From Candidatus Methanomethylophilaceae archaeon (GTDB lineage Archaea > Thermoplasmatota > Thermoplasmata > Methanomassiliicoccales > Methanomethylophilaceae), in NCBI GenBank assembly GCA_944320495.1, contig CALUHR010000013.1:64001-128000 (forward strand): DNA of 64,000 nucleotides. The letters run 5' to 3'. The position numbers were made by a program, and so were the translations under genes. Of the stretch, positions 2,926 to 58,380 are shown one piece after another (positions within the stretch are counted from its first letter, which is position 1; the number at the start of each line of letters is the position of its first letter). The notes under the pieces were generated by a model. That model was not told the origin of the DNA. It saw only the letters and a program-made list of their open reading frames with translations, and made no database searches.

Positions 2926-4152
2926 ATGGAGGACTGGATCTACGAGAACCTGGAGACCGCCCGCGCCCTCGCTTCCGAGGGACTGTGCGACAGGTGCCTG
3001 GGCCGCATGTTCGGCAAGGTCGGCACCGGCATGACCAACGACGAGCGCGGACGCATGGTCCGCGAGGCTCTCGCGGAGGAGGGAGACTGCCCTCCCGCAG
3101 TGTCGCCCTGTCCCCTGTGCGAGGACATCTTCGACCTGCTCCCCCGCTTCGCCGAGAACGTGGCGGAGGCGGTGAACCCCATAGAGTCCGACAACTTCCT
3201 CGTCGGCACCAAGGTCGAACCCGAGATCGCCGAGCGCGAGAGGGCCCTGTGGGAGAAGCACCAGCTCCAGAGCCCGGAGGCCATCAAGTCCGAGCTCAAC
3301 CGCGAGATCGGCAAGCTGGCACTCCCCATGATCCACCGCCCGGTGGAGTTCAAGAACCCCCAGGTGGTCGCCCTGGTGGACACCCGCTTCGGCGAGGTCA
3401 AGCTGGACATCGCCCCCCTCTTCATCGCCGGCCGCTACAACAAGTACAGCCGCGAGATCCCCCAGACCATATGGCCCTGCAGGGAGTGCCACGGCAAGGG
3501 ATGTCCCCACTGCCACGGCAAGGGCAAGATGTACGAGACCTCGGTGCAGGAGATCATCGGGGACATCGCCCTGGAGATGGCCGACGGGAAGGAGCACTTC
3601 TTCCACGGCATGGGCCGCGAGGACATCGACGCGCGCATGCTCGGTGACGGGAGGCCCTTCGTCCTGGAGATCTCCCAGCCCAGGAGGAGGTTCATAGACC
3701 TGGACGAGCTCGAGAGGAGGTCCAGCGCAGGCGACATGGCAGCGTTCAACTCCCTGCACTTCGTCCAGCGCGAGGCCGTCGAGAGATACAAGGGTGCCGC
3801 GTCCGACAAGGTCTATCGCGTGCGCGTTAAAGCAGACGGCAAAGTTAATAAAGAGGCAGTAGTTGACGTCGCCTTATCGTTCAAGGACGCCGATATAGAA
3901 CAGAGGACTCCACGCCGTGTCGAGCACAGAAGGGCCGACCTGGTCAGGAAGAGGAGGATCCACTGGGTGACGGCGGACTCCTTCGACGGGGACCGGTTCG
4001 ACCTCGAACTCGAGACCGACTCCGGCACGTACGTGAAGGAGTTCGTGTCCGGGGACGACGGCCGCACTCACCCCAACTTCTCTGAGAGGCTTGGGATCCA
4101 GTGCGTCGTCGAGGCCCTCGACGTATTGGCGATTGACTATCACGAACCACGA
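2926..4152 (+). CDS. pus10: tRNA pseudouridine(54/55) synthase Pus10 (408 aa if CGA at 4150-4152 is the stop)
   Basis: 'LCDRCLGRMF', 'GRYNKYSREIPQT.W', 'FHGMGREDIDARMLG.GRPFVLE', 'SGTYVKEFVSGD.GRT.P', terminal 'LDVLAID'. First in-frame CGA follows four codons after 'AID', 10 nt before the rpl21e ATG. Confidence 0.92.
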
Positions 4153-5350: not shown

Positions 5351-6132
5351 GCACCGCCAGAGAGCTCATGGCCTCCGCGGGAGTCGTCCCGAAGAAGAGC
5401 AAGGGGCAGAATTTTCTGATTGACGACCGCGTGGCGGACCGCATCGTCGGCTACGCCGGCATCACGCCCTCCGACAGGGTGCTGGAGATCGGCCCCGGGT
5501 TCGGCGTCCTCACAGATAGGCTCGCCGGCATGGGATCGAGCCTCACGTGCATCGAACTTGATACCAAGCTCGCATCCTACATCAGATCGACCTACGGCGA
5601 CCGCCTCACGCTCATCGAGGGCGACGCGGTCAAGGTCCCCTTCCCGGAGTTCGACGTCCTCGTCAGCAACCTGCCGTACAGCGTCTCGACCCCCATCATC
5701 TTCAAGCTCCTGGACCGCCCGTTCAGACGCGCCGTCGTCATGGTCCAGAAGGAGTTCGCCGACCGCATGGTCGCGGACGTCGGCAGCCCCGAGTACTCGA
5801 GGCTCACCGTCAACCTGTTCTACCGCGCCGAGTGCGAGATACTCGAACCCGTCCCCGCGTCCAGGTTCGACCCCAGGCCCAAGGTTGACTCCGCCGTAGT
5901 CGGCATAACGCCGAGACCCGCGCCGTTCGAGGTCCTCGACGAGCGCACGTTCTTCAAGGTGACCGAGGCCTGCTTCAACCAGCGCAGGAAGAAGATCGGC
6001 ACCGCCCTCAGGAACTACCGTCTGGTGGAGTCGTCCGAGAACATACCCTACAGGGACGACCGCATAGAGGACCTCCGTCCGGTGGAGATCGCCGAGATCG
6101 CTGACGCGGTGTTCCTGACCAGCAGACAGCGA
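5347..6132 (+). CDS. ksgA: 16S rRNA m6,2A dimethyltransferase KsgA/RsmA (261 aa with CGA stop 6130-6132)
   Basis: 'KKSKGQNFL', 'VLEIGPGFGVLT', 'VSNLPYSVSTP', 'MVQKEFA.R', 'F.PRPKVDSAVV'. CGA lies shortly after the terminal helix; the standard-code stop is 6171. Confidence 0.93.
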
Positions 6133-9221: not shown

Positions 9222-11633
9222 ATGGAAACCGCGGAGATCAGGATAATCAGCACGTCGTCCGCCACCCTGGATGAGGAGCCCGTAGTAGAGATCTACGGCA
9301 AGGCCAGGGACGGCAGGTCCGTGACCGTCCTGGTCCGCGGGTTCCATCCGTACCTCTACGGGGTGGAGGTCCCGGAGAAGCTGGAGCGCCAGCTCTCCGA
9401 GGACCCCGAGGTCGTCTCGGTCGAGCACCATCCCCTCCTCTTCAGGGGGAGGAACGTCGATGCGCTGAGGATCACGATCAAGAGTCCCTGGAAGGTCTCA
9501 GACATGCGCAGCAGGCTCCGCGCCAACGGCGTCGAGTCCCTCGCATCCGACATCCCGTTCAACCACCGCTACATCTACGACCAGGACATGGGCGCCTGCA
9601 TCCGCGTGACGGGCGAGCCCGTGGACCGCGGGTACTTCACCGACCTGACGATCGAGCTGTCCTCGTTCGAGAACGTGGACCCCTTCGACCCCGGCCTGAA
9701 GACGCTGTCCTTCGACATCGAGAACAGCGTCGAGCACGATTTCCTGTACTGCATCTGCTCCGTGGTCCATGAGAACGGGACCATGCGGGCCTGCGACCCC
9801 ATCTACGGCACCGAGCCGCAGATCATCCAGGCCTTCTCCGACCTCATCAGGAGGGAGGACCCGGACGTCATCACCGGGTACAACATCGAGAACTACGACA
9901 TCCGCAAGATCGAGGAGCGCGCCAAGGCCAATCGCATGAAGGATGCGATGCCCTGGGGCCGCGACGGCAGCCAGCCGAGGCTGCGCAACGACCGCTTCTG
10001 GCGGGTGAGAGGGCGCATCGTGTGCGACGCCTGGTGGGCCGCCCGCAGAGAGCTCCATCCCAAGCAGGAGACCCTCAACGCGGTCTCCAAGGAGCTCCTC
10101 GGAGAGACCAAGCTGGACGTCGACCCCCGCCACATGGACCAGGAGTGGAGGGACAACCGCGCGAAGGTCCTCGAGTACTGCACCAAGGACGCGGAGCTGG
10201 CACTGCGCATCCTGAACGAGGTGGAGACGGTCCGCAAGGGTATGGACCTGGCGGCGGTGTCGAAGCTGTCGGTGGAAGACGTCCTCTCGTCCGGATCCTC
10301 GCAGCTCGCCGACTCGCTGCTCATCCGCGCGGCGGACCGCGCGAACGTCGCCGTCCCCCAGATGGGCAAGCGCACCAGGGACGACGAGCAGATCGAGGGG
10401 GGATACGTGCACGACATCAAACCGGGACTGTACCACTGGGTCTGCGTCCTGGACTTCAAGTCCATGTACCCGTCCACCATCATCGCCAAGAACATCTGCT
10501 TCACCACGCTCTCCCCCGACGGGGAGATCGTCGCCCCGTCAGGCACAAGGTTCCTCTCCAAGGAGAAGCGCCTCGGGCTCCTGCCGATGATCCTCCAGGG
10601 CCTCATGGACCAAAGGGATTCTATCAAGAGGCAGATGAAGCAGACGACGGACGAGCACGAGCGCAGATACCTGGACGGACTGCAGGCGGCCGTCAAGGTG
10701 CTGATGAACACATTCTACGGGGTGTTCGCCTCATCCTTCTACAGGTTCACGGACAAGAGCATCGGTGCCGCGATAACATCGTTCGCGCGTGCCAACGTCA
10801 AGGGCATCATCGGCGAGCTGCAGTCGGAGGGTCACCATGTGGTGTACTCGGACACCGACTCCGTCTTCGTCCAGTCGCCGAAGGACGACATGGACGGCGC
10901 CATAGGGTTCGGGACGGCGATGGCCGATCGCTACTCCCGGGACGGCGGCACGCTGGAGTTCGAGAAGATCCTCGAGCCCCTGTTCACCCACGGCAAGAAG
11001 AAGAGGTACGTCGGCCGCGTGGTATGGCCCGTGAGGCAGGAGGACCTGCTGGTGCGCGGATACGAGAGCAGGAGGACCGACTCCTTCGACCTCCAGGACC
11101 GCCTCCAGACAGAGATGTTCGCATGCATACTGGACGAGCGCAACGAAGACGCCCTGGCGCTTGCCAGGAAGGCGATCCAGGACACACTGGCCGGACGGGT
11201 GGACCCTTCGGACCTGGTGATATCCAAGACATGCAAGGGGCTAGATGCCTACGAGAACCCCGACCGCATGGCGAACGTCCAGGCGGCCAAGAAGATGATC
11301 GAGCTAGGGTACGACTTCATCCCGGGCATGAAGGTCTCGTGGATCGTCACCGACGCCAAGTCCGCCCCCATGAGGGTGGAGCCATACATCAGCGGTCCCC
11401 AGTTCACGGCGAAGCCCGACTACCGCTACTACGCGGAGCGTCTGGCGAAGATGGCCGGCATGGTCACAGATGTGCTTGGATGGGGCGAGAAGGACCTCAT
11501 GATGGGCAGCCAGCAGGCCACCCTCCTGGACGGCGGGATGTTCTCGTCCAAGGAGTCCGACGCCCCGCAGAGGGAGCCTCCGAAGGCCCCCAAGCCCAAG
11601 TCCAAGGTCCGGAGCCTTGACGAGTTCTTCCGA
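9222..11633 (+). CDS. polB: Family B DNA polymerase (803 aa with CGA stop 11631-11633)
   Basis: Exo I 'SFDIE', Pol A 'LDFKSMYPS', Pol B 'KVLMNTFYG', Pol C 'YSDTDS', 'KKRY'. Ends with the PIP-box-like 'KVRSLDEFF' immediately before CGA. Confidence 0.96.
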
Positions 11634-12167
11634 TCGCGACGCGAGCCTCGGACGGAGCGTCTCCCCCATCATCCTCAGCGTGATATCCGCCATCTCCTCC
11701 GGAGGGTCGGACATGCCCCTGTCGAACCACAGAACGAACCATGCCATCATCCCGCCGAGATGGTACTCCATCCGGTACATGGACGGGACGTCGCCTCCGT
11801 CTGTCGGGAAGTGCTCCCTCAGAACGGGGAGGAGCATGGGCGTGAGACCGCGGGAATGCAGGACGATCATCTCGTCGCGCTTCGCGTAGAACGAGGAGAA
11901 TATCGTCCCGACGTACGCCTTGACGGTCTCCCATCCGTCCATTTCGCTCGCCGCCCTGCTGATAGGCCGCATCGCACCTTCGTAGATGTACGACACGACC
12001 TCGTCAACCGACCCGAACCTGCGGTAGAACGACGTGCGGTTCATGCCCGCCTCCCGGGTCAGCATGCTCACGGTGACCTCGTCGTAAGTATGGTCCCTCA
12101 GCAGCCTTACCAGGGACGAGGCGAGAGCATCCGAGGTCCCATCACGAATATGAGACATATTAGGCAT
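11634..12167 (-). CDS. TetR/AcrR family transcriptional regulator (CGA stop 11636-11634)
   Basis: 'L..LL....YDEVTVSMLTREAGMNRTSFYRRFGSVDEV'; C-terminal 'GG......W...G...PPEEMA'. Start 12167 or 12158. Confidence 0.85.
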
Positions 12168-12232
12168 ATGTGTCTCATCACGGAATTCGTTATCGGAAAC
12201 CGTATAAATCATTATGATGGGGTCGAAGGATC

Positions 12233-20916: not shown

Positions 20917-20918
20917 GC

Positions 20919-21874: not shown

Positions 21875-22617
21875 CACAGCACCTCCTTCATGACGAGCGC
21901 GTCCTTCGGACAGTCGTCGATGCAGTTGCTGCAGCTGATGCACTTGACCTCGTCGATGACGGGGCGGAGGATCGGTTTGCCGGTCTTCTCGTTGGTTCCC
22001 TTCTCCACCATCTGGATGGCGTCGACGGGGCAGACCTTGGCGCACTTCTTGCAGCCGATGCACTTGGCGTCGGTCAGCTCCGGCCTGTCGAGACTGAACA
22101 CGGACACGCGCCTCTCGGCGTTGCCGTTGTCGATGTCCGACTGCAGAGTGACCTCCAGCTTGACCTTCATGCCCTCGGTGGTCTTGTCGTACGCGAGCCT
22201 GCGGGGTCCGTACAGCAGGTCGAACCTGGTGAACTCGGCGAGCTCGTACTCGGGGGTGACGGTCATGGCGTCGACGGGGCAGTACTCGGCGCAGTATCCG
22301 CACATGGCGCACCTGCCGAGGTTGACCTGAGGCCTCTTGACGGTCTTGCCGTCGGCGGCCTCTGAGTCGACGATCTTGATGCACGCGGTGGGGCACATGC
22401 GGGCGCACATGCCGCATCCGACGCATTTGTCGAAATCGAGTCCCGGGCGTCCGCGATAGTTGTCCGGCACCCACTCCTTCTCGTAGGGGTACAGGACGGT
22501 GACCGGCCTGTGGAAGACGGTCTTCGCGAAGAGCTTCAGGACGTGCCACTGGGGTTTGATGACCCAGAGTCCCCTCGCTGTGCTGCGGGGGTACTTTTCG
22601 AGATACTTCATAGCCAT
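21874..22617 (-). CDS. fpoI: Fpo-like complex subunit I (NuoI) with four CxxCxxCxxxCP motifs
   Basis: 'T..YPYEK...PDNYRG', CVGCGMCARMCP, CAMCGYCAEYCP, CIGCKKCAKVCP, CISCSNCIDDCP. Confidence 0.93.
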   Translation of the reverse strand: MAMKYLEKYPRSTARGLWVIKPQWHVLKLFAKTVFHRPVTVLYPYEKEWVPDNYRGRPGLDFDKCVGCGMCARMCPTACIKIVDSEAADGKTVKRPQVNLGRCAMCGYCAEYCPVDAMTVTPEYELAEFTRFDLLYGPRRLAYDKTTEGMKVKLEVTLQSDIDNGNAERRVSVFSLDRPELTDAKCIGCKKCAKVCPVDAIQMVEKGTNEKTGKPILRPVIDEVKCISCSNCIDDCPKDALVMKEVL

Positions 22618-23795
22618 CGGAAGAACCCTCCTACCTTGAGCAGCAGAACGACTGCCAGGTTGATCACGGACAGGGGCATGAAGACCTTCCATCCGATGTT
22701 GACGATCTGGTCGGGCCTGACACGTCCGAGGGCGGCCCTCACGAGGATCATGAGGAAGAACACGAACCAGGTCTTCAGCAGGAACACGATCTCGGGTATG
22801 GGGCCGTTTCCGATGATGGGGAGCGCCCATCCGCCGAGGTACATGATTGTGACCATGGCGCACGCGACGTAGCCTCTGAAGTAGTCGGCCAGCATGATGA
22901 GACCCCACTTCATTCCGGCGTACTCGGTCTGCCATCCCTCGACCAGCTCGGCCTCTGCCTCGGCGATATCGAAGGGCACACGCTCGGACTCCGCTGTGGC
23001 GCAGAAGAAGAACGTGATGAAACCGATGATCTGCGGGATGAAGTACCAGACGGTCTCGTACTGGGCGTCCACAATGTCGCCGATGTTGAAGCTGCCGGCG
23101 AGCAGGGCGGTGGTCGCGATCATGATGAGCATCGGGACCTCATAGGAGATCATCAGCTCGGCCGCACGCATACCTCCGATCATGGCGTACTTGTTGTTCT
23201 GGGACCATCCGGACACAAGGATGAAGAACGGGGCCAGGGCGAAGAACGCCATGATGATCAGGAGACCGGAATCGTAGTTGACGACGAACCATCTCTGGGA
23301 CAGAGGGATCATACAGGCGAGCAGGACGGAGACACCGATGACCAGGGACACAGTCCACATGTAGGTCATGTTGTCGACCTTCTTCGGGATGGTGTTCTCC
23401 TTCATGAAGGTCTTGAGACCGTCGGCAACGCACTGGAGGAATCCCTTCATTCCCACCATGGTTCCCCTTCTGTCCATCATCCTACCGAGGCACTTACGCT
23501 CCATCCATAGGGAGATGAGCGTACATACGAACACCACGATGAAGACGATGAGCATGAAGATTATCAGCGACAGGAGGACGCACACGGGCTCGCTCATGAG
23601 CCAGTCCGACACGGGGTTCTCCGGGAAGATCAGGTTGATGAGCCAGGCGAGGGCTCCTCCGATGATCTTCCAGAGGCCGTACGAGATGGCGAACGGCAGG
23701 TTGTAGACGTCCTCGAACGGGTAGTACGCGTTGTCCATCACGTACTGGCCGTTGAAGTCGATGAAATCCAGGATGCTTGTGTATTCCACTACCAC
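22608..23795 (-). CDS. fpoH: Fpo-like complex subunit H (NuoH)
   Basis: 'WMERK..GRM.DRRG', 'QCVADGLK.F.KE', 'GGMRAA...ISYE', 'ERVPFDIAEAEAELV.G..TEY.G', 'RVRPDQ'. GTG start at 23795 or 23804. Confidence 0.93.
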   Translation of the reverse strand: MVVEYTSILDFIDFNGQYVMDNAYYPFEDVYNLPFAISYGLWKIIGGALAWLINLIFPENPVSDWLMSEPVCVLLSLIIFMLIVFIVVFVCTLISLWMERKCLGRMMDRRGTMVGMKGFLQCVADGLKTFMKENTIPKKVDNMTYMWTVSLVIGVSVLLACMIPLSQRWFVVNYDSGLLIIMAFFALAPFFILVSGWSQNNKYAMIGGMRAAELMISYEVPMLIMIATTALLAGSFNIGDIVDAQYETVWYFIPQIIGFITFFFCATAESERVPFDIAEAEAELVEGWQTEYAGMKWGLIMLADYFRGYVACAMVTIMYLGGWALPIIGNGPIPEIVFLLKTWFVFFLMILVRAALGRVRPDQIVNIGWKVFMPLSVINLAVVLLLKVGGFFRWL

Positions 23796-23800
23796 GCTGA

Positions 23801-24964
23801 TCACCTGTCGGTTTCTCCGAGGCACATGTCGATCTGGGCGAGGACGGCCGGAACATCGGCGATCCTGACGCCCTGGCACTGCAGCTTGGCGGAGGATACG
23901 TTCGTGAAGATCGGACTGCGGACCTTGAGCCTGTAGGGCTTGTCGGTTCCGTCGGACACGAGGTACATGAGGGACTCGCCGCGCGGGTCCTCCATCCTCA
24001 TGAAGTGGGTTCCGGCGGGGACCCTGGACGGGGCCTTGACCCTGTAGGGGGCGTTCTTCCCGAGAGCCTGGATCTTCTTCACGGCCTGCCTGATGATCTC
24101 GCAGGACTGGAACATCTCCTCGGTACGGATCATGTACCTGGCGTAGGAATCGCCCTCGGTCAGCACGGGGACCTCGAAGTCGACCTTGTCGTAGTTGTCG
24201 TAGGGGTCGTCCCTGCGGATATCGAAGTCGACGCCGCATCCCCTCATGGCGGGGCCGGTGAGTCCGACGTTGGCGGCCTGCTCCCTGGTGATGTAGCTGA
24301 TGCCTTTCATCCTCGATACGATGATCGAGCTGTCGTCCATCAGCGCGATGATCTCCCAGAGGGCCTTCTCGAACCTGTCGACGGTGCGGAGGATGTCCCT
24401 GTCGAAGAGCTCGGTGGTGTCGTTGCGGACACCTCCGATCCTCGGGTAGTTGGTGGTCATCCTGGCTCCGCAGAGCTTGACGTTCAGGTCGAGGAAGTAC
24501 TCCCTCTCCCTCATGGCCCACAGGAAGACGGTCAGGTTACCGAGGTCGGTACCTACCGCGGCGAGCCACATGAGGTGCGAGTTGATGCGGCAGACCTCGT
24601 CCGCCACGATCCTGATGTACTTGGCCTTCTCCGGGATGTCCATCCCGAGGGCCTTCTCGACCGTCATGCAGTACAGGTGGGTGTAGGTCATCGAGGCGGC
24701 GTAGCAGAGACGGTCCGCCATGGGGATGATCTTGGGATAGGTCCTGTTCTCGGTCTCCTTCTCCCACCCCCTGTGCAGGTAGCCGACGATGGGCTCCGCA
24801 TCAACGCAGATCTCTCCGTCGACCTTGATCTTCAGGGTCCACAGTCCGTGCGAGAACGGGTGCTGGGGTCCCATGATGATCCACATCTTGTCGGTTTCCA
24901 TCTTGTCGGCCTGCTGCTGGAGCTTCTCCTCGGCCGCAACGATGGGCGCTATTGAGTCAGCCAT
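23801..24964 (-). CDS. fpoD: Fpo-like complex subunit D (NuoD)
   Basis: 'GPQHP.SHG', 'GYLHRG.EK', 'DRLCY', 'LTGP.MRG.GV..DIR', 'E.PRGE', 'PYRLKVRSP'. Confidence 0.96.
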   Translation of the reverse strand: MADSIAPIVAAEEKLQQQADKMETDKMWIIMGPQHPFSHGLWTLKIKVDGEICVDAEPIVGYLHRGWEKETENRTYPKIIPMADRLCYAASMTYTHLYCMTVEKALGMDIPEKAKYIRIVADEVCRINSHLMWLAAVGTDLGNLTVFLWAMREREYFLDLNVKLCGARMTTNYPRIGGVRNDTTELFDRDILRTVDRFEKALWEIIALMDDSSIIVSRMKGISYITREQAANVGLTGPAMRGCGVDFDIRRDDPYDNYDKVDFEVPVLTEGDSYARYMIRTEEMFQSCEIIRQAVKKIQALGKNAPYRVKAPSRVPAGTHFMRMEDPRGESLMYLVSDGTDKPYRLKVRSPIFTNVSSAKLQCQGVRIADVPAVLAQIDMCLGETDR

Positions 24965-25434
24965 CACTCCTGCCCCCTGAGCTTGTATGATTTCCTGAAC
25001 GGGAAGAACTCGTAGGTCTGAGGCGTGAGGAGCCTCTCGAGCTTCGGGTGACCGTCGAAGACGATTCCGAACAGCTCCCAGGTCTCCCTCTCGTGCCAGT
25101 TGACCCCCTCCCAGATGCAGGTGACGGAGTCCACGTGGGGATCGTCGTTGGGGATGTCGGCGGAGAGCTCGATCATGAGTCCGTTCCAGTAGTTGGACAG
25201 GTGGTAGACCACGGTGAGGTGGTCGACGTAGTCGACGCCGATGACGGTGGAGCAGTGCTCGAACGAGAGGTTGTCGTGGATGTACTGGCACACCTCGCGG
25301 ACCTTCTCCCTGGGGAGCTTCGCGAAGACCCTGCGGGCCTCGGTGCCGGTGACCTCCACCTCGGGGAACCTCTCGGTCAGGAGGGTTTTGACCTCCTCCT
25401 CGGTGGGTTTCTGGTAGACTGCGGACGTGTCCAT
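24964..25434 (-). CDS. fpoC: Fpo-like complex subunit C (NuoC)
   Basis: 'W.GVNWHERETWELFGIVFDGHPKLERLL'. Confidence 0.95.
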   Translation of the reverse strand: MDTSAVYQKPTEEEVKTLLTERFPEVEVTGTEARRVFAKLPREKVREVCQYIHDNLSFEHCSTVIGVDYVDHLTVVYHLSNYWNGLMIELSADIPNDDPHVDSVTCIWEGVNWHERETWELFGIVFDGHPKLERLLTPQTYEFFPFRKSYKLRGQE

Positions 25435-25436
25435 TC

Positions 25437-26000
25437 TCAGTCCTCCAGGAACGCGCCTCTCCTGAAGTAGTCCTCGATCTTCTTCTGGAGCAGCATGAAT
25501 CCGTCGATCATGGCGTCGGGACGTGCGGGGCATCCGGGGATGTAGACATCCACGGGCACGATCTGGTCGAGGCCCTGCACGGTGTTGTAGGAGTCGTACC
25601 AGGGTCCGCCGGAGATGGCGCACTCGCCCATGGCCACGACCCACTTGGGGTTGGGGATCTGCTCGTACAGACGCCTGAGGTCCGGACGGATCTTCTTGGA
25701 GATCCAGCCGTTGACGAGCAGGATATCGGTCTGCCTGGGGGACGAACGGTAGATCATACCGTAACGCTCGGCATCATACCTGGGGGCCGACGCGGCCGCC
25801 ATCTCCAGGGCGCAGCAAGCGAGACCCCAGTGCAGAGGGTGCATGGAGTTCTTCATCGCCCAGGACCAGATGGGTCCGGTCAGCTCGTCGATGGTCTTCT
25901 TGGTACCGGAGCTCAGAAGGTCGTTGATCATCGCATCGGACCACGACATGAACTCGTCGGCACTCATTGCCACCGCATGGGGGTAGAGGCTCATATCCAT
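25437..26000 (-). CDS. fpoB: Fpo-like complex subunit B (NuoB)
   Basis: 'W.MKNSMHP..WGLACCALEM', 'RSSPRQ.D.L.V.G', 'AMGECAISGG', 'DVYIPGCP.RP'. Confidence 0.96.
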   Translation of the reverse strand: MDMSLYPHAVAMSADEFMSWSDAMINDLLSSGTKKTIDELTGPIWSWAMKNSMHPLHWGLACCALEMAAASAPRYDAERYGMIYRSSPRQTDILLVNGWISKKIRPDLRRLYEQIPNPKWVVAMGECAISGGPWYDSYNTVQGLDQIVPVDVYIPGCPARPDAMIDGFMLLQKKIEDYFRRGAFLED

Positions 26001-26353
26001 ACGTTCTCCTCCTTTTTGAGTGAGTAGCATACCCCAAGAATCAGAATCGCGAAGAAGGCGATCATCATGACCTGAGCCGTTATCGACAGTCCGGAGAATG
26101 CGACTGCCCAGATCATGAGGAAGGTCGCGACCAGGTCGAATACCACGAAGATCAGTGCGAACGTGTAGTACTGGAACCTGAACTGGACCTGAGCCTCTCC
26201 GATCGGTTCGGAACCGCACTCGTAGGTGGATTCCATCCACTGAGTGGGTTTCTTGGGCCGGATGAACCTGGATGCCCACCATGCCAGCGGTGCGAAGCCC
26301 AGCGCGATGACTGCGACTATCGCCAATGGCATGTAAAATGCTACTAGAGACAT
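25991..26353 (-). CDS. fpoA: Fpo-like complex subunit A (NuoA)
   Basis: 'YECGSEP.G.A...F..QYY.FALIFVVFDL'. Confidence 0.95.
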   Translation of the reverse strand: MSLVAFYMPLAIVAVIALGFAPLAWWASRFIRPKKPTQWMESTYECGSEPIGEAQVQFRFQYYTFALIFVVFDLVATFLMIWAVAFSGLSITAQVMMIAFFAILILGVCYSLKKEENVWI

Positions 26354-26376
26354 TGGACGCGCGCACGGAGTTGCAG

Positions 26377-26383
26377 TATAAAA
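26377..26383 (-). promoter_or_regulatory. TATA box of the fpo operon
   Basis: TTTTATA on the minus strand, 24-30 nt upstream of the fpoA ATG, consistent with a leaderless transcript. Confidence 0.5.
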
Positions 26384-26494
26384 TAACTAAGGAAGGCCAG
26401 CTTAAATTATATTTAAAAGAAAGAGGGGAGCGAGATAAGCCAGGACCCGGCGAATCGCCACACCTATTTAGTGGCACTGGGATGCCCATCCATC

Positions 26495-27304
26495 ATGACC
26501 GCACGCATCGGATTCATCGGCGCCGGGAAGATGGCCGAGGCCCTGATGGCCGGACTCCTGGCGAAGGGCGTATGCTCGAAGGACGACATCATCGCCTGCG
26601 CCCCCAGCGAGGGGACCAGGAGGCACATCTCGGAGACCTACGGGATCGCGATGTTCCAGACCGCCACCGAGGTGGTCTCCATGGTGGACGAGGTCGTCCT
26701 CGCCGTCAAGCCCGCGCAGGTCCGCACCGTGATGGTCGACGAGGGCGCCGCATCGGCCTTCAGGCCCGGGACCCTCCTCCTCAGCGTCGTCGCGGGGCTC
26801 ACCGTGAACGGCCTGAAATCATATGTGCCAGACGCAAAGATCGTGCGTGTCATGCCGAACCACTGCGTGGCCGTTCTGGAGGGCGCCATGGGCTACACCA
26901 CGGACGGCACGCTGACCCCCGAGGAGCTGAATGGAGTATCATCCATCCTGGGTTCCGTGGGCCTCGCCGTGCAGGTGCCCGAGGAGAAGATGGACGCCAT
27001 CACCGGCCTCGCCGGGAGCTCCCCCGCGTTCATATATCAGGTGATAGACGCGATGGCCGACGCTGGCGTGCTCAACGGCATCCCGAGGAGGGACGCCATA
27101 ACACTGGCCGCGCAGTCGGTGCTGGGGGCCGCCAAGATGGTTCTCGAGACCGGGAAGCACCCGGACCAGCTGAAGGACGAGGTCTGCTCCCCCGGCGGCA
27201 CCACCATCGAGGGCGTCCGCGCCGCGGAGGACATGGGACTCCGCTCCGCGATGATCGCCGCGGTGGATGCGGCGGTATCCAAGTCGAGGGAGATGAGCAG
27301 GCGA
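26495..27304 (+). CDS. proC: Pyrroline-5-carboxylate reductase (269 aa with CGA stop 27302-27304)
   Basis: 'IGFIGAGKMAEAL', 'LAVKP', 'RVMPN', 'GLAGSSPAF', 'L...VCSPGGTTIEG', terminal 'AA..KSREM' directly before the CGA. Confidence 0.95.
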
Positions 27305-29029
27305 TCGGCGCCTCAGGAACGACTTCGCGAGGCCCATGACCACCCTGGGACCGTTGGACCATATCGATCCGGCGTCCCAGTCCAGGTCCTTCTTGTTGGC
27401 GATGGTGGAGTTCATCATCCTGATGCCCTCCTCCTTCGTCTCCCACAGCTTCGCATCCCTCTCCCCCTGATCGGGGATGAGCATGATCTCGTCGATGCGG
27501 TGCATCAGCGAGCGGGCCTTCTCCGTGCGGTCGACCCTGTCGTCATAGACCTCCTTCGATGTGCGTCCCGCCTCGTGCTCGCATCTCGCGAGCTCGTTGG
27601 CCGCGTCGTAGGAGATCTCGGCGACGTCGTCCCTGGTCATCCACTTCGTCTCGTAGGACAGGACGTGCTTCCACGATGGGTTGTCCAGGAGCCTCCTGTG
27701 GTCCTCCAGCGTGTGGGCGCGGAGGGTGTATCCCCACTCGTCGGGATGCTCGAATATCCTGCTCCCGGGGTCGACGAAGGGCGCGAACGGGGCGTTGTAG
27801 ATGAACAGGTTGTCCTCCGGCCTGACCGAATCCCATAGCTTCTTGGAGGCTCTGGCACTGTTCATGGCGGACTCGCGGTCCTGGAACGGGAGACCGTTCA
27901 TGTAGAACAGGTCGAACCTGCTGCAACCGCATTCGAAGGCCGTCGGCACGGTGCGCTCGATGGCCTCGTTCGTATAGCCCTTCCCGAGCGCCGAGCGCAC
28001 GGCCTCGTCGTGGGAGTCGGGCGAGAACTCGATGGACCATCCGGCCTCCAGGGAGCGGTCGATCTCCGTGAAGTAGTCCGGTCCGGCGCCGTTGAAGAGC
28101 TCGATGACCACATGGTTCCTTATGCCGATCTCGCGGCACTCCCTGAGGAACCTGGTGGCGTAGTCGCGGCCGGCCTGCCTCAAGTCGCCCACGATGAACA
28201 CGGGAGTGTCAAGATAGGACTGAATGGACTCTATGTCCTGTGCGAGCCTCTCCGGGCTGCGGAACGCCGGCTTCCTCCTGCAGACGACGGTTCCGTTCGC
28301 GTAGTGGGAACCGCCGCACTCGGCGCAGTTGATGGAGCATCCGCGCACTGTGAACACGGAGGTCAGCGGGAGCCTGTCCCACCCGTACCACGGGAGGGCC
28401 CCTTTGATGTCCATGTTCCTGAGGACACCGCGGATCATCGTCCCGTAGTCGAACCTTATGGAATCCAGCGATTCCAGAGAATGGGACACGCCGTTGTCGT
28501 GCACCTTCCCCTCGGAGTCCTTCCAGACGAGGTTCGGCACCTCCGACAGGTCACCTCCCCTCTGCAGGACCTCCATCATCTTCACGGTCGGGACCTCGGT
28601 GGTGTCCCCGCACATGACCAGGTCCACCTCGGGACGGCGGATCAGCTCGTCCTTGAAGTAGGACGACGTGAGCCCCCCGAACTCGACCTTCGATTCGGGA
28701 TGGAGCCTCTTGACGATCTTCGCCAGCTCCAGCGCGCCGTGCGCGTGGGGCATCCAGTGGAGGTCTATGGCGAAGACGTCAGCATGGAGCTTGCGGATGC
28801 ATTCCTCGGCGTCGAAGCTGTCGCTCTGCAGCATCCGGACCGCGATGTTGACGATGCGGGTGCGGAAGCCTGCGGCCTCCAGCTCCGAGGAGATGGTCAT
28901 GAAGCCCACGGGGTACATCTCGAACACCGGGGACGACGGGATGACGTCGGACACCGGCCCGTAGAATATGGGCTTCTTGCGGAAATCGTAGACGCTGGGC
29001 GCATGCAGGAACACTATCTCCGTCTTCAA
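27305..29029 (-). CDS. B12-binding radical SAM protein (574 aa with CGA stop 27307-27305)
   Basis: N-terminal 'FLHAPSVYDFR', B12-binding domain 'AIDLHWMPH', 'RGCSINCAECGGS' (CxxxCxxC). TTG start. Confidence 0.88.
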
Positions 29030-29033
29030 CCGA

Positions 29034-29819
29034 TCATCTCCCGAAGCGCCTGACGCGCTGCTGATAGGTGCGTATGGCCCTCAGCAGGTCTATGTGCCTG
29101 AATCCCGGCCAGTACACGTCCGTGAAGTATAGTTCGGAATAGGCGAGCTGCCAGAGCAGGAAGTTGGACACCCTGACCTCCCCGGACGTGCGGAGCACCA
29201 GGTCCGGGTCGGGCATCCCCGTGGTGGAGATGTACCCAGACACCGTGTCCTCGTCTATCTCGTCGACGGATATCTTCCCATCGACGGCGTCCTGGGCTAT
29301 CGCGCGGACGGCGTTGGCGATGTCCTGCCTCCCGCCGTAGGCGATGGCCATGTTGAGGAACCTCTCGTTGTATCCAGAGGTGCGCTCGTAGGCGTAGTCC
29401 ATCGCCTTGCGGACCTTCTCCGGAAGGAGATCCGTCTGGCCTATGACGCGGATGCCCACCATGTTGGCGTGCACGTCCTCGTCGTCGGCGAACTCGTACA
29501 GCGACTGCTCCAGCAGGTCCATGAGGTACTCGACCTCGTCCGAGTCCCGCTTGAAGTTCTCCATGGAGAACGCGTAGACGGTGAGGACCTTGATGTCCAG
29601 GTCCATGCACCAGTGGAGGACCTCCTCCAGCTTCTTACGGCCCAGCCTGTGGCCCTCGAGCGGCGGGCTGCCCAGCACCTCCTCGGCGTAGCGCCGGTTG
29701 CCGTCCATTATGATGGCTATGTGCTGGGGCATCTCCCCCGCACGCACCTCCTTCTCGAGCTGCGCGTCGTAGGTGGCATACGCCCTGTCTGTTAATATCC
29801 CCTTGAGGTCCATGCTCAT
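29034..29819 (-). CDS. uppS: Undecaprenyl/polyprenyl diphosphate synthase (cis-prenyltransferase)
   Basis: 'HIAIIMDGNRRYA', 'TVYAFS.ENFKR', 'AIAYGGRQDI', 'PDLVLRTSGEVRVSNFLLWQ.AYSE', 'RRFG'. Confidence 0.95.
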   Translation of the reverse strand: MSMDLKGILTDRAYATYDAQLEKEVRAGEMPQHIAIIMDGNRRYAEEVLGSPPLEGHRLGRKKLEEVLHWCMDLDIKVLTVYAFSMENFKRDSDEVEYLMDLLEQSLYEFADDEDVHANMVGIRVIGQTDLLPEKVRKAMDYAYERTSGYNERFLNMAIAYGGRQDIANAVRAIAQDAVDGKISVDEIDEDTVSGYISTTGMPDPDLVLRTSGEVRVSNFLLWQLAYSELYFTDVYWPGFRHIDLLRAIRTYQQRVRRFGR

Positions 29820-30763
29820 TCGAAGTCCTCGGGGATCCCCGCGGCCCTCTCGCCGATGTCGAAGCATCCTATGGCAGCGACGGCGCCGATGACGCCCTTG
29901 GTCCCGGTGACGCTGATGATCTGGACCCCGCACTCCTCGGCGACGCGGACGGCATCGTCCGTCGTGTACAGGACGGATTTGCAGGACCAGCCGTACTCCC
30001 TGAGGCGCTCCGGGATCTCCAGACCCTGGAACACTGTCAGGACCGCGTCCTCGGAGTAGCTCTCCTTGCGGACGAAGTCCACGGCGTACTCGATGAGCGC
30101 CGGGATCTCCTCCTCGCGCACGGCGAAGGAGACGGCGGTGGAGCAGCAGTTGGTGGTCTTGTTGGGGACCTTCGGGTTGAGCTGGATGATCTTGTGCTCC
30201 AGGAACCTCCCCACGGGGCAGGTGGTCCCGAGCTTGAGGGACACCACCCACGAGGCGCCGGCCTCCTTGGTGTCGGTGTCGTCGATGCCGATGATCACCC
30301 TGACCATCTTGGGCGTGATGATGTCCACGTGGGCGCGGTGCGCCCCTCCGATGGTGAAGTCGTCCGGATACTCGGTGCGGATCACATCGGGGCACTGCGG
30401 TATGCACGCGCCGATGCCGACGGAGGCGCCGGCTATGCCGTACCAGGTGGTGCGGACCTCGTCCCCCTCCACCTTCAGGGCGCTGAGCCCCTGGCCGCCC
30501 ACGTCGGAGGACACTGGGCCGAAGCTCAGCTCGCTCTCCCCGATGCGGGCGTTCATCACGAGCATGTCCGACTCCTGGCGGATATCCTCTATGACGCCCT
30601 TGGTGCGGCGCCTATTGACCAGGTCCCACTCGCCGGGGCCCTTGGAGGCGCATTTCTCGACGATCATGGCCTTGCCGGCCTTCTCGTCCACCAGGGTGTA
30701 GAACCCCCTGCAGAACAGAGGCCCGTACTTCGCGCGGACCTCGTCCGGTCTCAGCACGTACAT
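29816..30763 (-). CDS. Methanogenesis marker protein 11 (contains a TiaS-like GxDDTD domain)
   Basis: 'GIAGASVG...C', 'IIGIDDTDT.E.GASW', 'KTTNCCSTAV.F', 'G..G.IGAVAAIG'. Confidence 0.75.
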   Translation of the reverse strand: MYVLRPDEVRAKYGPLFCRGFYTLVDEKAGKAMIVEKCASKGPGEWDLVNRRRTKGVIEDIRQESDMLVMNARIGESELSFGPVSSDVGGQGLSALKVEGDEVRTTWYGIAGASVGIGACIPQCPDVIRTEYPDDFTIGGAHRAHVDIITPKMVRVIIGIDDTDTKEAGASWVVSLKLGTTCPVGRFLEHKIIQLNPKVPNKTTNCCSTAVSFAVREEEIPALIEYAVDFVRKESYSEDAVLTVFQGLEIPERLREYGWSCKSVLYTTDDAVRVAEECGVQIISVTGTKGVIGAVAAIGCFDIGERAAGIPEDFE

Positions 30764-31440
30764 CGCTCGACCTCCTCGTCGTCATCGTCGACCGGACCGG
30801 TGTCCCAGTCCTCCGGGTCGGCGATGTCGATGGCGTCCGACGGGACGTGCTTGCAGAGGAACACAGTCCTGGCGGCCCTGCCGATGTCGGCGCCCATCTC
30901 GATGCAGACGCCGGTGTCTATGACCAGGATCTCGGGTTCGTCCATCCTGACGGACCCTGCGCGGACGGCGTCGCGGAACGACAGGGACAGATGGACCATG
31001 TTGCGGTCCGTCGGCGATATGCCGTCGCGGAGGATGTCCTCGGTCTCCTCGGGGGAGACGGGGTAGAACAGCTCCGGGGGTATGTCCTCGTTGTCCAGCT
31101 TGAGGTCCAGCGGGATGGTGTGGCCGTACGTGGCGCGGACCTTGCCGCCGGCGATGGAGTAGCGGCCCTTCGGGTCGGTCTCCACCAGGGCCTCGATGTG
31201 CCTCGGCCTCAGCCAGTTCATGTAGGTGTGGCGCCCCCTGATCAGGGCGACCACCTGCTGCATGGGCACCCAGCCCTGATCGTCCATGTCCGGCTCGAAC
31301 TTGCCGTGCCTAAGGATGGCGGCAAGCGTGCGTCCGATCCTCTCGACCTCCTTGTCAGAAAGGATGAACTTGCCCTCCTCCCCGCAGTGGGGACATCTCT
31401 CGTCACGGAAGTAGCCGTGTTCCTCGCATTCCCTTATCAT
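30763..31440 (-). CDS. kptA: RNA 2'-phosphotransferase KptA/Tpt1 with N-terminal zinc finger (CGA stop 30765-30763)
   Basis: 'C.EHGYFR...CP.CG', 'LAAILRH', 'D..GW', 'KGRY', 'RATYGH', 'R.MVHLS'. The CGA overlaps the next ATG (CGATG). Confidence 0.88.
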
Positions 31441-32327: not shown

Positions 32328-32527
32328 CTGCCTCCTCCTTCTGGCCGCCCATCGCCAATCCCATATAAAGAGAAACGCGCGCGTGGAAGGGTGGGTCTGA
32401 CGGCCGACATAGCCTACGGATGGGCCCGTAGGACTCCCTATGATACCTCGACAACGAACTTAACGGTCCCGAGACTGGACAGCCACTGCTGTGATCCCAT
32501 GACCGATTCACGCATGGAGGCGCCGCG

Positions 32528-33799: not shown

Positions 33800-33824
33800 A
33801 CCAGCCGGCGATGGAAGTGACGAT

Positions 33825-34616: not shown

Positions 34617-34620
34617 CGGA

Positions 34621-36601: not shown

Positions 36602-37504
36602 ATGAGGTCCGCGCTCCTGATACTGCCCATCCTTTCGGGTGTGATGTGGGGCGCAGCGGGGATATTCGTCCGCACACTCTCGGAGTACGGCTTCGACGGT
36701 CAGACCATCGCGTTCTCGCGCGTGCTCATCGCCATGGCCATGATGCTCCTGCTGATCCTGGCAACCGACAGGAGGATGCTCTCGTTCAGGAGGCGCGACA
36801 TCTGGCTGTTCGTCCTGTGCGCGGTGTCGATGACGGGGCTGAACGTGTTCTACACCATAGCCGCCGACGAGCTCTCGCTCTCCCTGGCGGCTGTCCTGCT
36901 CAGCCTGTCCCCGGTGTTCATGGTCCTCATCGCCCGCGTCATATTCGGCGAGGCCATCACCAGGCGCAAGGTGTTCTGCATAGCCGTATCCATCGTGGGA
37001 TGCGTCCTGGTGAGCGGATACCTCGAGAACGAATCTACGCTCTCGATGTTCGGCATCGCGTCAGGAATAGTCGCGGCGGTGTTCTACGCCGTCTACGGAA
37101 TAGCGTCGAAGAAGGCCTCCGCCAGCGGCTACAGCGTCTACACCACGCTGTTCTACTGCATGCTGATCTCCATGGTCATCCTGATCCCGTTCTCAGACCT
37201 CGGCATCGTGGCCGACTACGCGGGCGAGGGGGCCTGGGAGATCGGATTCCTGGTACTGCAGGCGGCGGTGGCATCGTTCCTGCCGTACATCCTGTACTCG
37301 GTGGCGATGGCGCGCATCGAGGCGGGCACGGGGTCGCTCCTGGCGGCCTGCGGGGAGCCGGTGGCGGCCGCCGTGTTCGGACTCCTGGTGTTCGCGGAGG
37401 TGCCGAGCCCGATCATGGTTGTCGGCATGGCCCTCGCCATCGGGGCGATGGCCACGATATGCATGAACCCCAAGAGGGAGGGGAACCTCGCGGAGGATCA
37501 TCGA
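36602..37504 (+). CDS. EamA/DMT family transporter (300 aa with CGA stop 37502-37504)
   Basis: 'MWGAAG.F', 'SLAAVLL.LSPVF', 'LPY.LY..AM.RIEAG..SLL...EPV.AAV.G...F.E'. Confidence 0.9.
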
Positions 37505-37953: not shown

Positions 37954-37963
37954 GAAACCCGCT

Positions 37964-42016: not shown

Positions 42017-42021
42017 CGAAA

Positions 42022-42948
42022 TCGCTCCCTTGAGAATATCCCGTCGCCCAGCTGCCTCACCATGACGTCATACACCGAGCCGGGACTCATCATGCCCAGC
42101 TCCGTGACGATCGCGTCTATGTACGCGGCGGGGGTGCTGTCGAACACTGGATTGAATATCTTTACCGAGTCGCGGACCTCCCCGGGCCTCACGACCTCGG
42201 AGATTTCGCGCTCCTCTATGGTCACCGAATCGCCGAACATTGTCATCGGCGAGAACTTGTAGGTCTCGGCGCAGGCGTAGAGGTGCACCCTGGCCTCGTG
42301 GGCGGCCAGCGCAAGCTGGGACGTCCCGACCTTGTTGATGAGGGCCCCCTGGGACGTGACGGTGTCGGCACCCACGAACACCTTGTCGACCTTGCGCATC
42401 ACCGAGCGCACCGCGCTGTCGATGATCAGCGTGACGTCCACGCCGGCGTCGGCCAGGTCGTTGACCGTCAGGATGCCCTGCCTCCAGGGACGGGACTCGG
42501 TTGCGTACACCCTGATGTCCTTCCCCTGCCTGTGGGCCTCCTTGATGACGCCTAGGGCGGCGCTGCTGTTGCAGTGCGTCATGATGACATCGCCGTCCTG
42601 GATCCTGCGTGCTCCGATGCGGGCGATCTCCTCCACCGCCCTCTCGGACCTTTCGCAGAATGCCTTCGCGTTGGCCAAGACCAGCGACCTTGCCTCCTCG
42701 AGGGAGGATGCCTCGGACGCGCCCCTGACCGTGGCGTGCAGCCCGTTCCACAGCGAGACCGCGGTGGGCCTCGATGCGAGGATCGTGTCGCTCGCCCCCT
42801 TCAGATCGGCGAGGAACCCCTCCAGGGTCCCCCCGGTGTACGTGTCGGCGAAGTCGCCCAGCGCGGACGCTCCCGCCCTGGCGATCCTCCCGGCCCCGCG
42901 AATCCTCATGCTGCGGATCAGCTCCGCAGTCTCCTCCGCCGTGGTCAC
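42022..42948 (-). CDS. Ribose-1,5-bisphosphate isomerase (eIF2B-alpha-like; 308 aa with CGA stop 42024-42022)
   Basis: 'IRSMRIRGAGRIA', 'RPTAVSL.N', 'MTHCNS', 'ESRP..QG', 'VGADTV', 'NKVGT', 'NPVFD.TP'. GTG start at 42948 is inferred. Confidence 0.92.
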
Positions 42949-57492: not shown

Positions 57493-58038
57493 ATGACCGC
57501 GCGCGACGATCCCGACGTCAGGGACAGCAGGCTGATGAGCAGGATACTGCGCCACTGCCCCGAGAGATACGGGGTCGCCCTGGACCGCGACGGGTGGGCA
57601 TCGGTGGAGGGGCTCAGCAGGGGCTCCGGACTCCAGGCGGAGCGCATAATCCGCATAGCGGAGACCAACACCAGGTACGAGCTGTCCCCCGACGGAGGGA
57701 GGATAAGGGCGCTCCACGGCCACAGCGTCGACGTCGGATACGGGGCGCCCGTGTCCCCTCCGGACGTGCTCTACCACGGCACCAGCAGGGAGAACCTGAA
57801 GGGGATCATGGCCTCGGGTGCGATACTCCCGATGAGGCGCACCATGGTCCACCTGTCGGTCTCCGTGGAGAGGGCGGAGGAGGTCGGCAGGAGGCACGGT
57901 GAGCCCGTCGTCATATCCGTGGATGCCAGGAGGATGGCCGGGAGCGGGTTCGAGTTCTTTCTCTCGGGGGACGGGGTGTACCTCACGGAGAGGGTGCCGA
58001 CGGGATACTTCCTGGTCGTGACCGATATGGGGGATCGA
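57493..58038 (+). CDS. kptA: Second RNA 2'-phosphotransferase KptA/Tpt1, bacterial-type (181 aa with CGA stop 58036-58038)
   Basis: 'MSRILRH.P', 'LD.DGW', 'TRY', 'IRALHGHS', 'LYHGT', 'R..VHLS', 'RHG.PV', 'GVYL...VP..Y'. Confidence 0.88.
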
Positions 58039-58380
58039 TCGCAGGGTCCTGTCGATCCTGTGTATCTCCTCGTACTGCTCTAGGACCTCGCCGTCCTCGC
58101 GCATCTCGCCGCAGATGATGAAATCGGCGGCCTGCAGATGGTTGGCCACCCTCGTCCCGCCGGGGGTGATCGTGTAGAACCTCGTGACGTGCTTCCCCGT
58201 CTCGAGGTATGTGTCGGCCATTCCCAGCTCGACGAGCCTGCGGCCGATCCTGGAGGCCGTGGTGTAGTTCGAACCGAACCTGTAGAGGTCGCCCTCCTTG
58301 ATGCGGCCCTTGTAGCTCAGAAACATGATGGCATCCGCTATGTACCTTTCCGACAACGGGGATACATCGTTGCGTGCCAC
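58039..58380 (-). CDS. Small winged-helix DNA-binding protein (113 aa with CGA stop 58041-58039)
   Basis: 'NYTTASRIGRRLVELGM', 'FYTITPGG.RVA..L'. GTG start. Confidence 0.6.

Follow-up and report, generated by a model that had tools for sequence, protein, structure and literature searches.

Reassignment of a sense codon to termination is known from organelles, where AGA and AGG serve as stops in vertebrate mitochondria, TCA in Scenedesmus mitochondria (table 22) and TTA in Thraustochytrium mitochondria (table 23). Codons can also change meaning by way of an unassigned stage, the codon capture route of Osawa and Jukes, reportedly illustrated by CGG in Mycoplasma capricolum and by AGA and AUA in Micrococcus, and in Blastocrithidia tRNAs with a 4-bp anticodon stem are said to accompany an altered eRF1, the shortened stem letting tRNA-Trp read UGA. 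Bacterial release factor 2, in turn, is autoregulated via an in-frame UGA in prfB, which is passed by a +1 frameshift with a Shine-Dalgarno-like stimulator. Stop-to-sense changes and reassignments of arginine codons are both known in bacteria (PMC8629427). For CGA itself, a yeast study reports that eRF1/eRF3 detectably terminates at this codon in competition with tRNA-Arg, and that the UGA-biased eRF1 variants L123R, L123F and L123Y enhance release there (Wada and Ito 2018, PMC7379694). Among archaea, one preprint proposes Genetic Code 34, in which all TAG codons mean pyrrolysine, for Methanomethylophilus, Methanogranum, Methanoplasma and others (bioRxiv 10.1101/2024.09.30.615893), and another describes a CGG-to-Trp change in two Njordarchaeales assemblies in which CGA is absent from the sequence aligned by hidden Markov models (Melnykov 2026, bioRxiv 10.64898/2026.04.02.715157). 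Here we examine a 64,000-nucleotide stretch (hereafter the window, positions 64,001 to 128,000 of contig CALUHR010000013.1, or G000:C13:64001-128000) of the genome of a Candidatus Methanomethylophilaceae archaeon, which we label G000 and which comprises 1.77 Mb in 14 contigs. In the window the pyrroline-5-carboxylate reductase gene proC and a B12-binding radical SAM gene converge on the letters CGATCG, and we argue that in this archaeon CGA is probably a stop codon beside TGA and the rare TAA, with TAG read as pyrrolysine, a sense-to-stop reassignment that would be read by the archaeal release factor aRF1.

The convergent junction of proC and a radical SAM gene

The initial annotation had the proC frame ending in ...KSREMSR and the radical SAM frame ending in ...SFLRR, each followed directly by CGA, and it was correct in coordinates and peptide ends for both genes. 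From ATG 26495 the plus-strand proC frame (26495..27301, 269 codons, with an in-frame GTG at 26471 as alternative start) runs through GAG ATG AGC AGG (the last codon at 27299-27301) into the CGA at 27302-27304, and the minus-strand frame runs into the CGA that is the reverse complement of TCG at 27305-27307, beyond which the plus strand continues with GCG. Under table 11 the open reading frames (ORFs) are 26471..27838 (plus strand, 455 aa) and 26939..29029 (minus strand, 696 aa), which overlap by 900 nt as had been estimated; with CGA translated as a stop they shrink to 26471..27304 and 27305..29029 and meet with no nucleotide between them.

The domain content of both products fits within the shorter frames. 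The TIGR00112 proC equivalog scored 264.5 bits (cut-off 196.75), with profile positions 1-263 of 263 falling on residues 5-267 of 269, and Pfam placed F420_oxidored and the whole of P5CR_dimer (1-105 of 105) in the same protein. The converging gene (27308..29029, minus strand, 574 codons with the start assumed to be TTG 29029) encodes a B12-binding domain/radical SAM protein of the TIGR04190 family (603.4 bits against an equivalog cut-off of 500, the best stretch covering profile positions 2-507 of 554) with Pfam matches to B12-binding and Radical_SAM. Among the 120 ProC homologues listed, 113 were 256-299 aa long and 7 were longer, as had been expected of a protein of this kind. The nearest public homologue (98% identical) is a 447-aa read-through gene call, and exact 269-aa and 447-aa ProC sequences found no match in the protein collection, probably through a difference in the called start or in a residue.

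The ends of orthologues agree with the CGA positions. In eleven loci of the same genus the proC stop lies at, or at most 2 codons from, the same aligned place, with TGA at L003, L004, L006-L009 and L011 and CGA, as at L001, at L002, L005, L010 and L012, both sequence and orthologue ends thus placing the proC terminator at 27302..27304. The CGA of the radical SAM gene (27305..27307, minus strand, TCG on the plus strand) is supported in the same way: its orthologues end in CGA at the aligned residue in L001 and L002 and one codon later in L003 and L005, and in TGA at the aligned residue in L004, L006 and L008-L012 and four codons later in L007. Compared with the 98%-identical relative at L002, proC differs by 20 synonymous and 7 non-synonymous changes and the radical SAM gene by 47 and 12. 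In the frames that standard-code read-through would add, the corresponding counts at this locus are 1 and 16 for the proC tail (27305..27838, plus strand, with no Pfam match) and 0 and 16 for the radical SAM tail (26939..27304, minus strand), so the substitutions mark both as non-coding in those frames. Profile coverage, orthologue ends, homologue lengths and substitution pattern all back the suggestion that the read-through overlap is an artefact; the tail frames at this locus lack purifying selection, and we found nothing to indicate that either protein carries its tail. Taken jointly with the reading of CGA as a stop, it appears likely that the proC product has 269 residues and the radical SAM product about 574, neither of them tailed.

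CGA across the genome and among relatives

The use of CGA as a gene end extends over the whole genome. In a confident gene set, defined with TAA, TGA and CGA as stops and with its own codon-score thresholds, 974 of the 1322 genes end in TGA, 304 in CGA (~23%) and 44 in TAA, and CGA ends occur on every G000 contig but C12, which holds 6 genes of the set. Contig GC is 0.60-0.64 except for C7 (7 kb, 0.577). In a strict continuation test on a codon-usage score, which required 60 strongly coding codons before the codon in question and coding for 60 more after it, coding continued after 50 of 895 TGA (0.056), 3 of 28 TAA and 6 of 245 CGA codons (0.024), against 43 of 100 TAG codons and a fraction of 0.45-0.74 for eight sense codons. 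When ORFs of at least 150 codons with a high G+C content at third positions (GC3) were cut at TAA, TAG, TGA or CGA, 913 ended at TGA, 313 at CGA, 43 at TAA and 32 at TAG, and mean GC3 over the 50 codons past the terminator was 0.572 for TGA, 0.579 for CGA, 0.597 for TAA and 0.844 for TAG. Beyond a terminal CGA the next standard stop is a median of 23 codons away, and in 36% of cases it is at least 50 codons away, so a nearby hidden stop is not the explanation. A frameshift at CGA onto a hidden standard stop was also considered and rejected, as judged from the sequence contexts, where neither a -1 nor a +1 shift yields a stop. Together these comparisons of coding signal show CGA to mark the functional end of about 23% of genes, to be excluded from gene interiors and to act as a frame-specific signal.

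The exceptions are few and can be named. CGAs with strongly coding sequence upstream and no standard stop within 40 codons were followed by coding-like sequence in 9 of 229 cases, most of which are same-frame adjacent genes, and three are truly internal, in aRF1, in a Flavodoxin_4 gene and in a GmhA/GmhB-like fusion. The Flavodoxin_4 gene (G000:C8:55307-55837, plus strand; L258:508-1038) has its CGA at residue 127 within a domain match spanning 34-175, with C as the next base like the aRF1 codon, which makes it either another gene that is read through or a recently arisen pseudogene. At G000:C13:193672-194718 (minus strand; L257:873-1919) a GmhA-like SIS domain and a GmhB-like HAD phosphatase lie in one frame linked by CGA (...ELFGS CGA AVFIDRDD...), with no ATG, GTG or TTG after this CGA, and another CGA closes the whole ORF. 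Production of the phosphatase part apparently depends on reading through the linking codon, and a programmed fusion is possible. Among terminal CGAs, the share of all stops rises from 6.8% in the top codon-adaptation quintile to 37.7% in the lowest (Mann-Whitney p 5e-27), a concentration in low-adaptation genes that is the pattern expected of a usable but weaker stop.

The source organism belongs to the Methanomethylophilaceae (Methanomassiliicoccales), in a genus that includes an entry titled Ca. Methanoprimaticola. Relatives were sampled by tblastn with G000 proteins on 11-116 kb per genome, counting the first stop-like codon past alignments that reached the C-terminus and removing a match on the internal aRF1 CGA from the counts of five relatives; such counts may include a sense CGA near a true stop. 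Within the genus CGA accounted for 0-40% of stops across samples: 30/87 in G010, 304/1322 in G000, 9/53 in G013, 9/55 in G001, 4/10 in G003, 2/9 in G012, 3/23 in G002, 1/14 in G016, 4/73 in G004, 3/59 in G082, 2/67 in G006 and 2/79 in G090, with none in G011 (0/34), G036 (0/21), G008 (0/42) and G015 (0/69). Other genera and two outgroup families gave 0-2 CGA per 18-72 stops, several of them far from the aligned end and doubtful. At orthologous stops of G000 and G010 we found CGA/CGA 12 times, CGA/TGA 6 times, TGA/CGA 17 times and TGA/TGA 47 times, an alignment-based result showing that the two codons have been interchangeable in evolution in both directions.

Loss of CGA from gene interiors is distributed more widely than its use as a stop. 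In-frame CGA numbered 0-4 per 18,474-26,519 aligned codons per genus member, or 0-0.15 per 1000 aligned codons in nine members (samples of about 80-116 kb). The values per 1000 in other genera were 0 (g12), 0.05 (g15), 0.33 (g14), 1.0 (g17), 1.2 (g22) and 4.9 (g21), and in the outgroups 1.3 and 2.9; where present in relatives, in-frame CGA was mostly aligned to arginine. This distribution suggests that genes lost CGA first and that its role as a terminator came afterwards, confined to part of one genus.

Decoding machinery and competing explanations

A candidate reader of CGA is the release factor itself. G000 has one aRF1 (TIGR03676, 544 bits, the match spanning an in-frame CGA) and one Pelota, whose gene ends in CGA. 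The in-frame CGA of the aRF1 gene is codon 78 and aligns to an arginine conserved in archaeal and human factors (Arg81 of human eRF1). All 21 of 21 genus members have exactly one CGA in aRF1, at the codon 78 site in 20 and at codon 25 in one. Across 80 family loci there is exactly one in 71 (two partial genes), none in 3 and two or three in 6, and the site varies by clade, falling at aligned codons 78, 25, 11, 123, 50, 9, 178 or 327. Seven outgroup genomes carry 2-4 scattered CGAs in the gene, and family members keeping Arg or Lys at position 65 of the protein carry 4 and 0. Since g15 has one CGA per 20,726 aligned codons, the occurrence of one in the 410-codon aRF1 cannot be chance. The codon stands within the genus in the context GCT (or TCT) CGA CTN, with T before and C after; among terminal CGAs, T precedes in 8% and C follows in 17%. 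The aRF1 gene is itself CGA-terminated in 3 of the 80 loci.

The factor also differs from human eRF1 in a loop implicated in first-base reading. According to a study of human eRF1, positions 61-68 are named candidates for reading U1, the loop 59-68 that contains Arg68 is implicated in U1 reading, R68 is stacked on I62 of NIKS and R68A is almost inactive (Kryuchkova et al. 2013, PMC3632111). In a gap-free N-domain alignment to human eRF1, Met65 of G000 corresponds to Arg68 and Arg123 to Leu126. Position 65 is Met (Leu in g14) in CGA-depleted family members, Arg in g21, which has 4 CGAs in aRF1, Lys in g18, and Arg or Gln in the six aligned of the seven outgroup genomes. A G-to-S change in the GTx loop of aRF1 is private to G000/G018.

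The cognate tRNA is altered as well. In relatives tRNA(UCG) was located by sequence pattern and covariance model; in G000 and eleven other genus members it is 73-75 nt long with a short D-loop and a broken 31-39 pair, and in G036 it is 77 nt long with a D-loop that is not short and the same pair broken. The opposed bases are A.A in G000/G018, G009, G010, G003, G012 and G001, U.C in G013, and C.A in G004, G002, G011, G016 and G036. In G008, G015, G007 and G031 (L228-L231) the stem pair is intact and C33 replaces the near-universal U; this C33 branch consists of genomes without in-frame CGA apart from the one in aRF1. One g15 genome has a tRNA(UCG) with a regular 5-bp stem. Arranged by tRNA state, CGA makes up 16-40% of stops with A.A or U.C, 0-13% with C.A and 0% with C33 (G008, G015), a suggestive association of tRNA state with CGA stop share that is confounded with phylogeny.

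We propose that the single aRF1 tolerates either U or C as the first base of YGA and outcompetes a deliberately weakened tRNA-Arg(UCG), reading CGA as a somewhat weaker stop. The change would have proceeded by codon capture in three steps. CGA would first have disappeared from the genes of most family members, coinciding with the Arg-to-Met/Leu change in the NIKS loop of aRF1 at the position of human eRF1 Arg68. TGA-to-CGA transitions at stops would then have become tolerable in part of the genus, and CGA stops would finally have accumulated, mainly in weakly expressed genes. The altered tRNA-Arg(UCG) would be kept at low efficiency for the few programmed CGAs, and the CGA in the aRF1 gene would give feedback, synthesis of the factor falling when CGA termination is efficient and rising when it is not. 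For the complete stepwise reading, joining the NIKS-loop change, a purge of CGA that spared the aRF1 sensor, the weakened tRNA and a CGA stop for up to a third of genes, our judgement is evenly balanced.

Several observations weigh against CGA being a stop read by aRF1. At least three genes need CGA as a residue, so the codon is not purely a stop, and G000 encodes all five arginine anticodons, UCG included. A standard stop lies within 10 codons after 100 of 304 terminal CGAs compared with 235 of 974 TGAs (Fisher p 0.003), an excess of backup stops that hints at leakiness. The NIKS and YxCxxxF motifs of aRF1 are unaltered, and Met or Leu at position 65 occurs also in g17 and g22, where CGA is a rare arginine codon (~1 per 1000). 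Yeast L123, judging from the motif, would be an x of YxCxxxF, and arginine at that position is common to outgroups that read CGA normally, so arginine there cannot be sufficient. We found no change in the aRF1 N-domain that splits the species with many CGA stops from the genus members without any. Finally, the correlations across taxa are not independent and may reflect one or few evolutionary events.

Of the other explanations, the one that survives best takes CGA to be unassigned, a "hungry" codon at which the crippled tRNA(UCG) stalls ribosomes and Pelota/aEF1-alpha, ABCE1 and peptidyl-tRNA hydrolase free the chain without aRF1. The structural impairment of tRNA(UCG) in every genus member examined would fit this, as would the disappearance of CGA from coding sequence in G008, G015 and g15, where it is not used as a stop (0/42, 0/69 and 0/58), the concentration of CGA stops in weakly expressed genes, the slight surplus of backup stops and the presence of a Pelota gene. 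A hungry codon leaves the single CGA in aRF1 (71 of 80 family loci) unexplained, however, rescue without GGQ-catalysed hydrolysis would be costly for 23-34% of all proteins, and yeast eRF1 is known to release at CGA (PMC7379694). We regard this explanation as unlikely.

Site-specific C-to-U RNA editing, as in plant organelles, could convert terminal CGA to UGA under the standard code, and the fact that the two codons are one transition apart and alternate at orthologous stops agrees with it. The RNA evidence comes from assembled contigs of three metatranscriptome runs and one DNA run over 21000-40999, in which no row appears at 27302, 27307 or 22617 among the contig differences listed, those of the junction contig being unspecified; among the differences listed, X13 has 22 C>T against 15 T>C, which is no excess and counts weakly against editing. 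Editing blind to frame would be expected to alter NCG codons before A, yet these align to the standard residue like NCG not before A (0.608 compared with 0.596 for TCG), and the "edited" residue is matched in 1-6% for both classes. The context around terminal CGAs is diverse, so the enzyme would need to know the frame, and editing gives no account of the loss of CGA in relatives without CGA stops, of the aRF1 CGA at an arginine or of the deformed tRNA(UCG); we consider it very improbable. Least credible of all is the standard code, with CGA as arginine and either real long tails, decaying genes or T-to-C sequencing and assembly errors at TGA, for although a tRNA(UCG) gene exists and the 447-aa ProC stands among public gene calls, the tails lack coding signal and purifying selection and overlap a conserved gene on the opposite strand over 900 nt. 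The 18,000-26,000 codons aligned for each genus member lack in-frame CGA, and identical CGAs turn up in a separate assembly at 98% identity, with counterparts in further species assembled independently.

Further CGA ends and comparison with known systems

Many other genes of the window end in CGA under the reading of CGA as a stop. Complete Pfam profiles stop just short of the codon in ProC and in three further proteins. The CGA at 4150..4152 (plus strand) terminates Pus10, in which the Pus10_C profile (1-232 of 232) ends at residue 404 of 408 and the next standard stop is 213 codons on. The one at 22617..22619 (minus strand) terminates a NuoH-like subunit of an Fpo/Nuo-like operon, with the NADHdh profile (3-297 of 298) ending at residue 386 of 395. 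The one at 42022..42024 (minus strand) terminates an IF-2B-family gene, with the IF-2B profile (2-280 of 280) on residues 29-302 of 321 and a standard stop 66 codons on. A KsgA/RrnaAD gene ends in CGA at 6130..6132 (plus strand) by coding score and Pfam, and the coding-score ORF list adds terminators at 7948-7950, 13707-13709, 46728-46730, 50552-50554 and 57437-57439 on the plus strand and at 661-663, 30763-30765, 34621-34623, 37964-37966, 38515-38517 and 44113-44115 on the minus strand. In all, the 73 window ORFs with a coding score above 0.45 (some low-scoring antisense ORFs included) end in TGA 43 times, in CGA 23 times and in TAA 7 times.

Convergent junctions like that of proC recur in the window. 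Zero-gap CGA/TCG junctions lie at 11631..11636, between a family-B DNA polymerase gene (plus strand, ending at 11633) and a TetR-family gene (minus strand, 11634..12212), and at 58036..58041, between Tpt1/KptA (plus strand, 57493..58038) and an unnamed ORF (minus strand, 58039..58380). At 37501..37504 the CGA stops of an EamA transporter gene (plus strand, ending at 37504) and a GNAT gene (minus strand, ending at 37501) overlap by 2 nt in TCGA. Genome-wide, the sites exactly between converging strongly coding stretches comprise 9 CGATCG, 14 TGATCG/CGATCA and 1 TGATCA, CGA thus being favoured at zero-gap convergent junctions although TGA stops are three times as common; the control palindromes TAATTA, CGGCCG, AGATCT, GGATCC and CCATGG (42-1231 copies each) were found at such junctions 0 times. 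CGATCG itself occurs 21 times in the window against 64 expected from dinucleotide-preserving shuffles (n=100, the largest giving 82 and all at least 21), which may reflect restriction-modification avoidance. The base after a terminal CGA is T in 55%, in part through CGATG stop-start overlaps. A methylation-linked base-calling artefact was tried as a source of terminal CGAs and rejected, their flanks being diverse and only 44 of 279 lying in CGATCG.

Several of these genes have informative neighbours. The complex-I-like operon at 15896-26353 (minus strand) contains Oxidored_q6, 30 kDa, 49 kDa, NADHdh, Fer4, q3, q2 and three Proton_antipo_M genes and is presumably the Fpo-like complex of methylotrophic methanogens; since its NuoH-like gene has a CGA end mid-operon, CGA ends are not simply transcript ends. 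At 39270-42987 (minus strand) a thymidine/AMP-phosphorylase-like gene (Glycos_trans_3N/Glycos_transf_3/PYNP_C), a RuBisCO large-chain homologue and the CGA-terminated IF-2B-family gene form a cluster that we take to be an archaeal AMP-salvage trio, the last gene being presumably ribose-1,5-bisphosphate isomerase-like. Two paralogous Tpt1/KptA RNA 2'-phosphotransferase genes, at 30766-31440 (minus strand) and 57493-58035 (plus strand), are both CGA-terminated. The public runs that contain at least half of window positions 26400-29100 are labelled chicken gut, bird or unspecified metagenome (five rows from three studies), which fits an animal-gut habitat; the run with the fullest coverage may be the sample from which the assembly came.

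With regard to TAG, the continuation test points to a codon that is mostly sense in G000, in line with Code 34. There are two mtmB genes with one in-frame TAG each, at G000:C3:48813-50165 (minus strand) and C3:56058-57410 (plus strand). The second lies a few bases upstream of the convergent CGATCG junction at C3:57417, one of the nine, so that a key methanogenesis enzyme appears to stop at CGA. In-frame TAGs are more numerous than methylamine methyltransferases alone would give. An early estimate of general TAG read-through was discarded as inflated by high-GC3 antisense ORFs, many-TAG ORFs overlapping better-scoring genes.

A search of the full-text literature, with most subscription journals and the Codetta/KACI supplements outside its reach, found no description of CGA termination in Methanomassiliicoccales, and CGA has 0 occurrences in Borrel et al. 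2014. From gene structure and alignment, two elements are ones we have not seen described: an eRF1-type factor that would have captured a sense codon in a cellular genome, and a copy of this codon conserved in frame within the gene for the factor. If the reading of CGA as a stop is true, such a sense-to-stop reassignment would have no precedent in a cellular, non-organellar genome and would sit atop TAG as pyrrolysine; it would mean that the termination machinery of a cellular genome can take over a sense codon, and a single family of gut methanogens would offer living intermediates in which CGA is normal, rare, absent or a stop. It would also provide a testable structural hypothesis for first-base stop-codon reading by an eRF1-type factor and, in the gene of an archaeal release factor, a conserved element that is a candidate for autoregulation. 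In practical terms, standard gene callers would add false tails and overlaps to about a quarter of this organism's genes and to as many as a third of those of a relative, which would put errors at those genes into the proteomes, pangenomes and metaproteomic databases for such archaea of human and animal guts. Relatives of the family supply widely used PylRS/tRNA-Pyl pairs, which makes its decoding rules of interest to genetic-code engineers.

Set against the systems introduced above, this archaeon shares features with each and differs from each. Code 34 concerns the same family, and TAG is sense-like here too, but that proposal states TGA and TAA as the only stops and does not mention CGA (0 occurrences; bioRxiv 10.1101/2024.09.30.615893). 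The Njordarchaeales likewise include an archaeon without CGA in conserved coding sequence, and the author raises a CGA stop as a possibility; there, however, the phylum is another one, tRNA(UCG) was not found, gene ends are untouched and the question is left open by the author. Yeast eRF1 resembles the present case in that a single CGA placed at a gene end gives a detectable stop, and the residue aligned to L123 is Arg123 here; in yeast this is weak misreading in a reporter, with CGA still arginine, whereas here CGA ends about 23% of genes and is nearly absent inside them. In prfB, as in aRF1, a factor gene carries its own stop codon in frame near the 5' end, conserved across the lineage, and such a codon would let the factor's abundance set its own synthesis. 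Unlike in prfB, the aRF1 frame is unchanged across CGA and the codon stands at a conserved arginine, so tRNA-Arg(UCG) would get past it by ordinary decoding, and by analogy we would speak at most of prfB-like logic.

In Blastocrithidia, as here, a change in anticodon-stem length and a release-factor change near NIKS accompany the new meaning of a YGA codon, but the direction there is stop-to-sense, whereas here the broken 31-39 pair is found in a tRNA whose codon goes to termination. In the organellar sense-to-stop cases, too, a sense codon quits coding sequence and appears at gene ends; those are tiny genomes with bacterial-type factors, and the present case concerns another codon in the chromosome of a free-living archaeon with aRF1 and the cognate tRNA kept. 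With codon capture, finally, the family shares the predicted intermediate, CGA standing at 0-0.05 per 1000 without a new role in g12, g15, G008 and G015. The classical cases combine extreme composition with loss of the tRNA, whereas here, at a genomic GC of 0.54-0.62 that does not disfavour CGA, the tRNA persists with changes and the new meaning would be termination.

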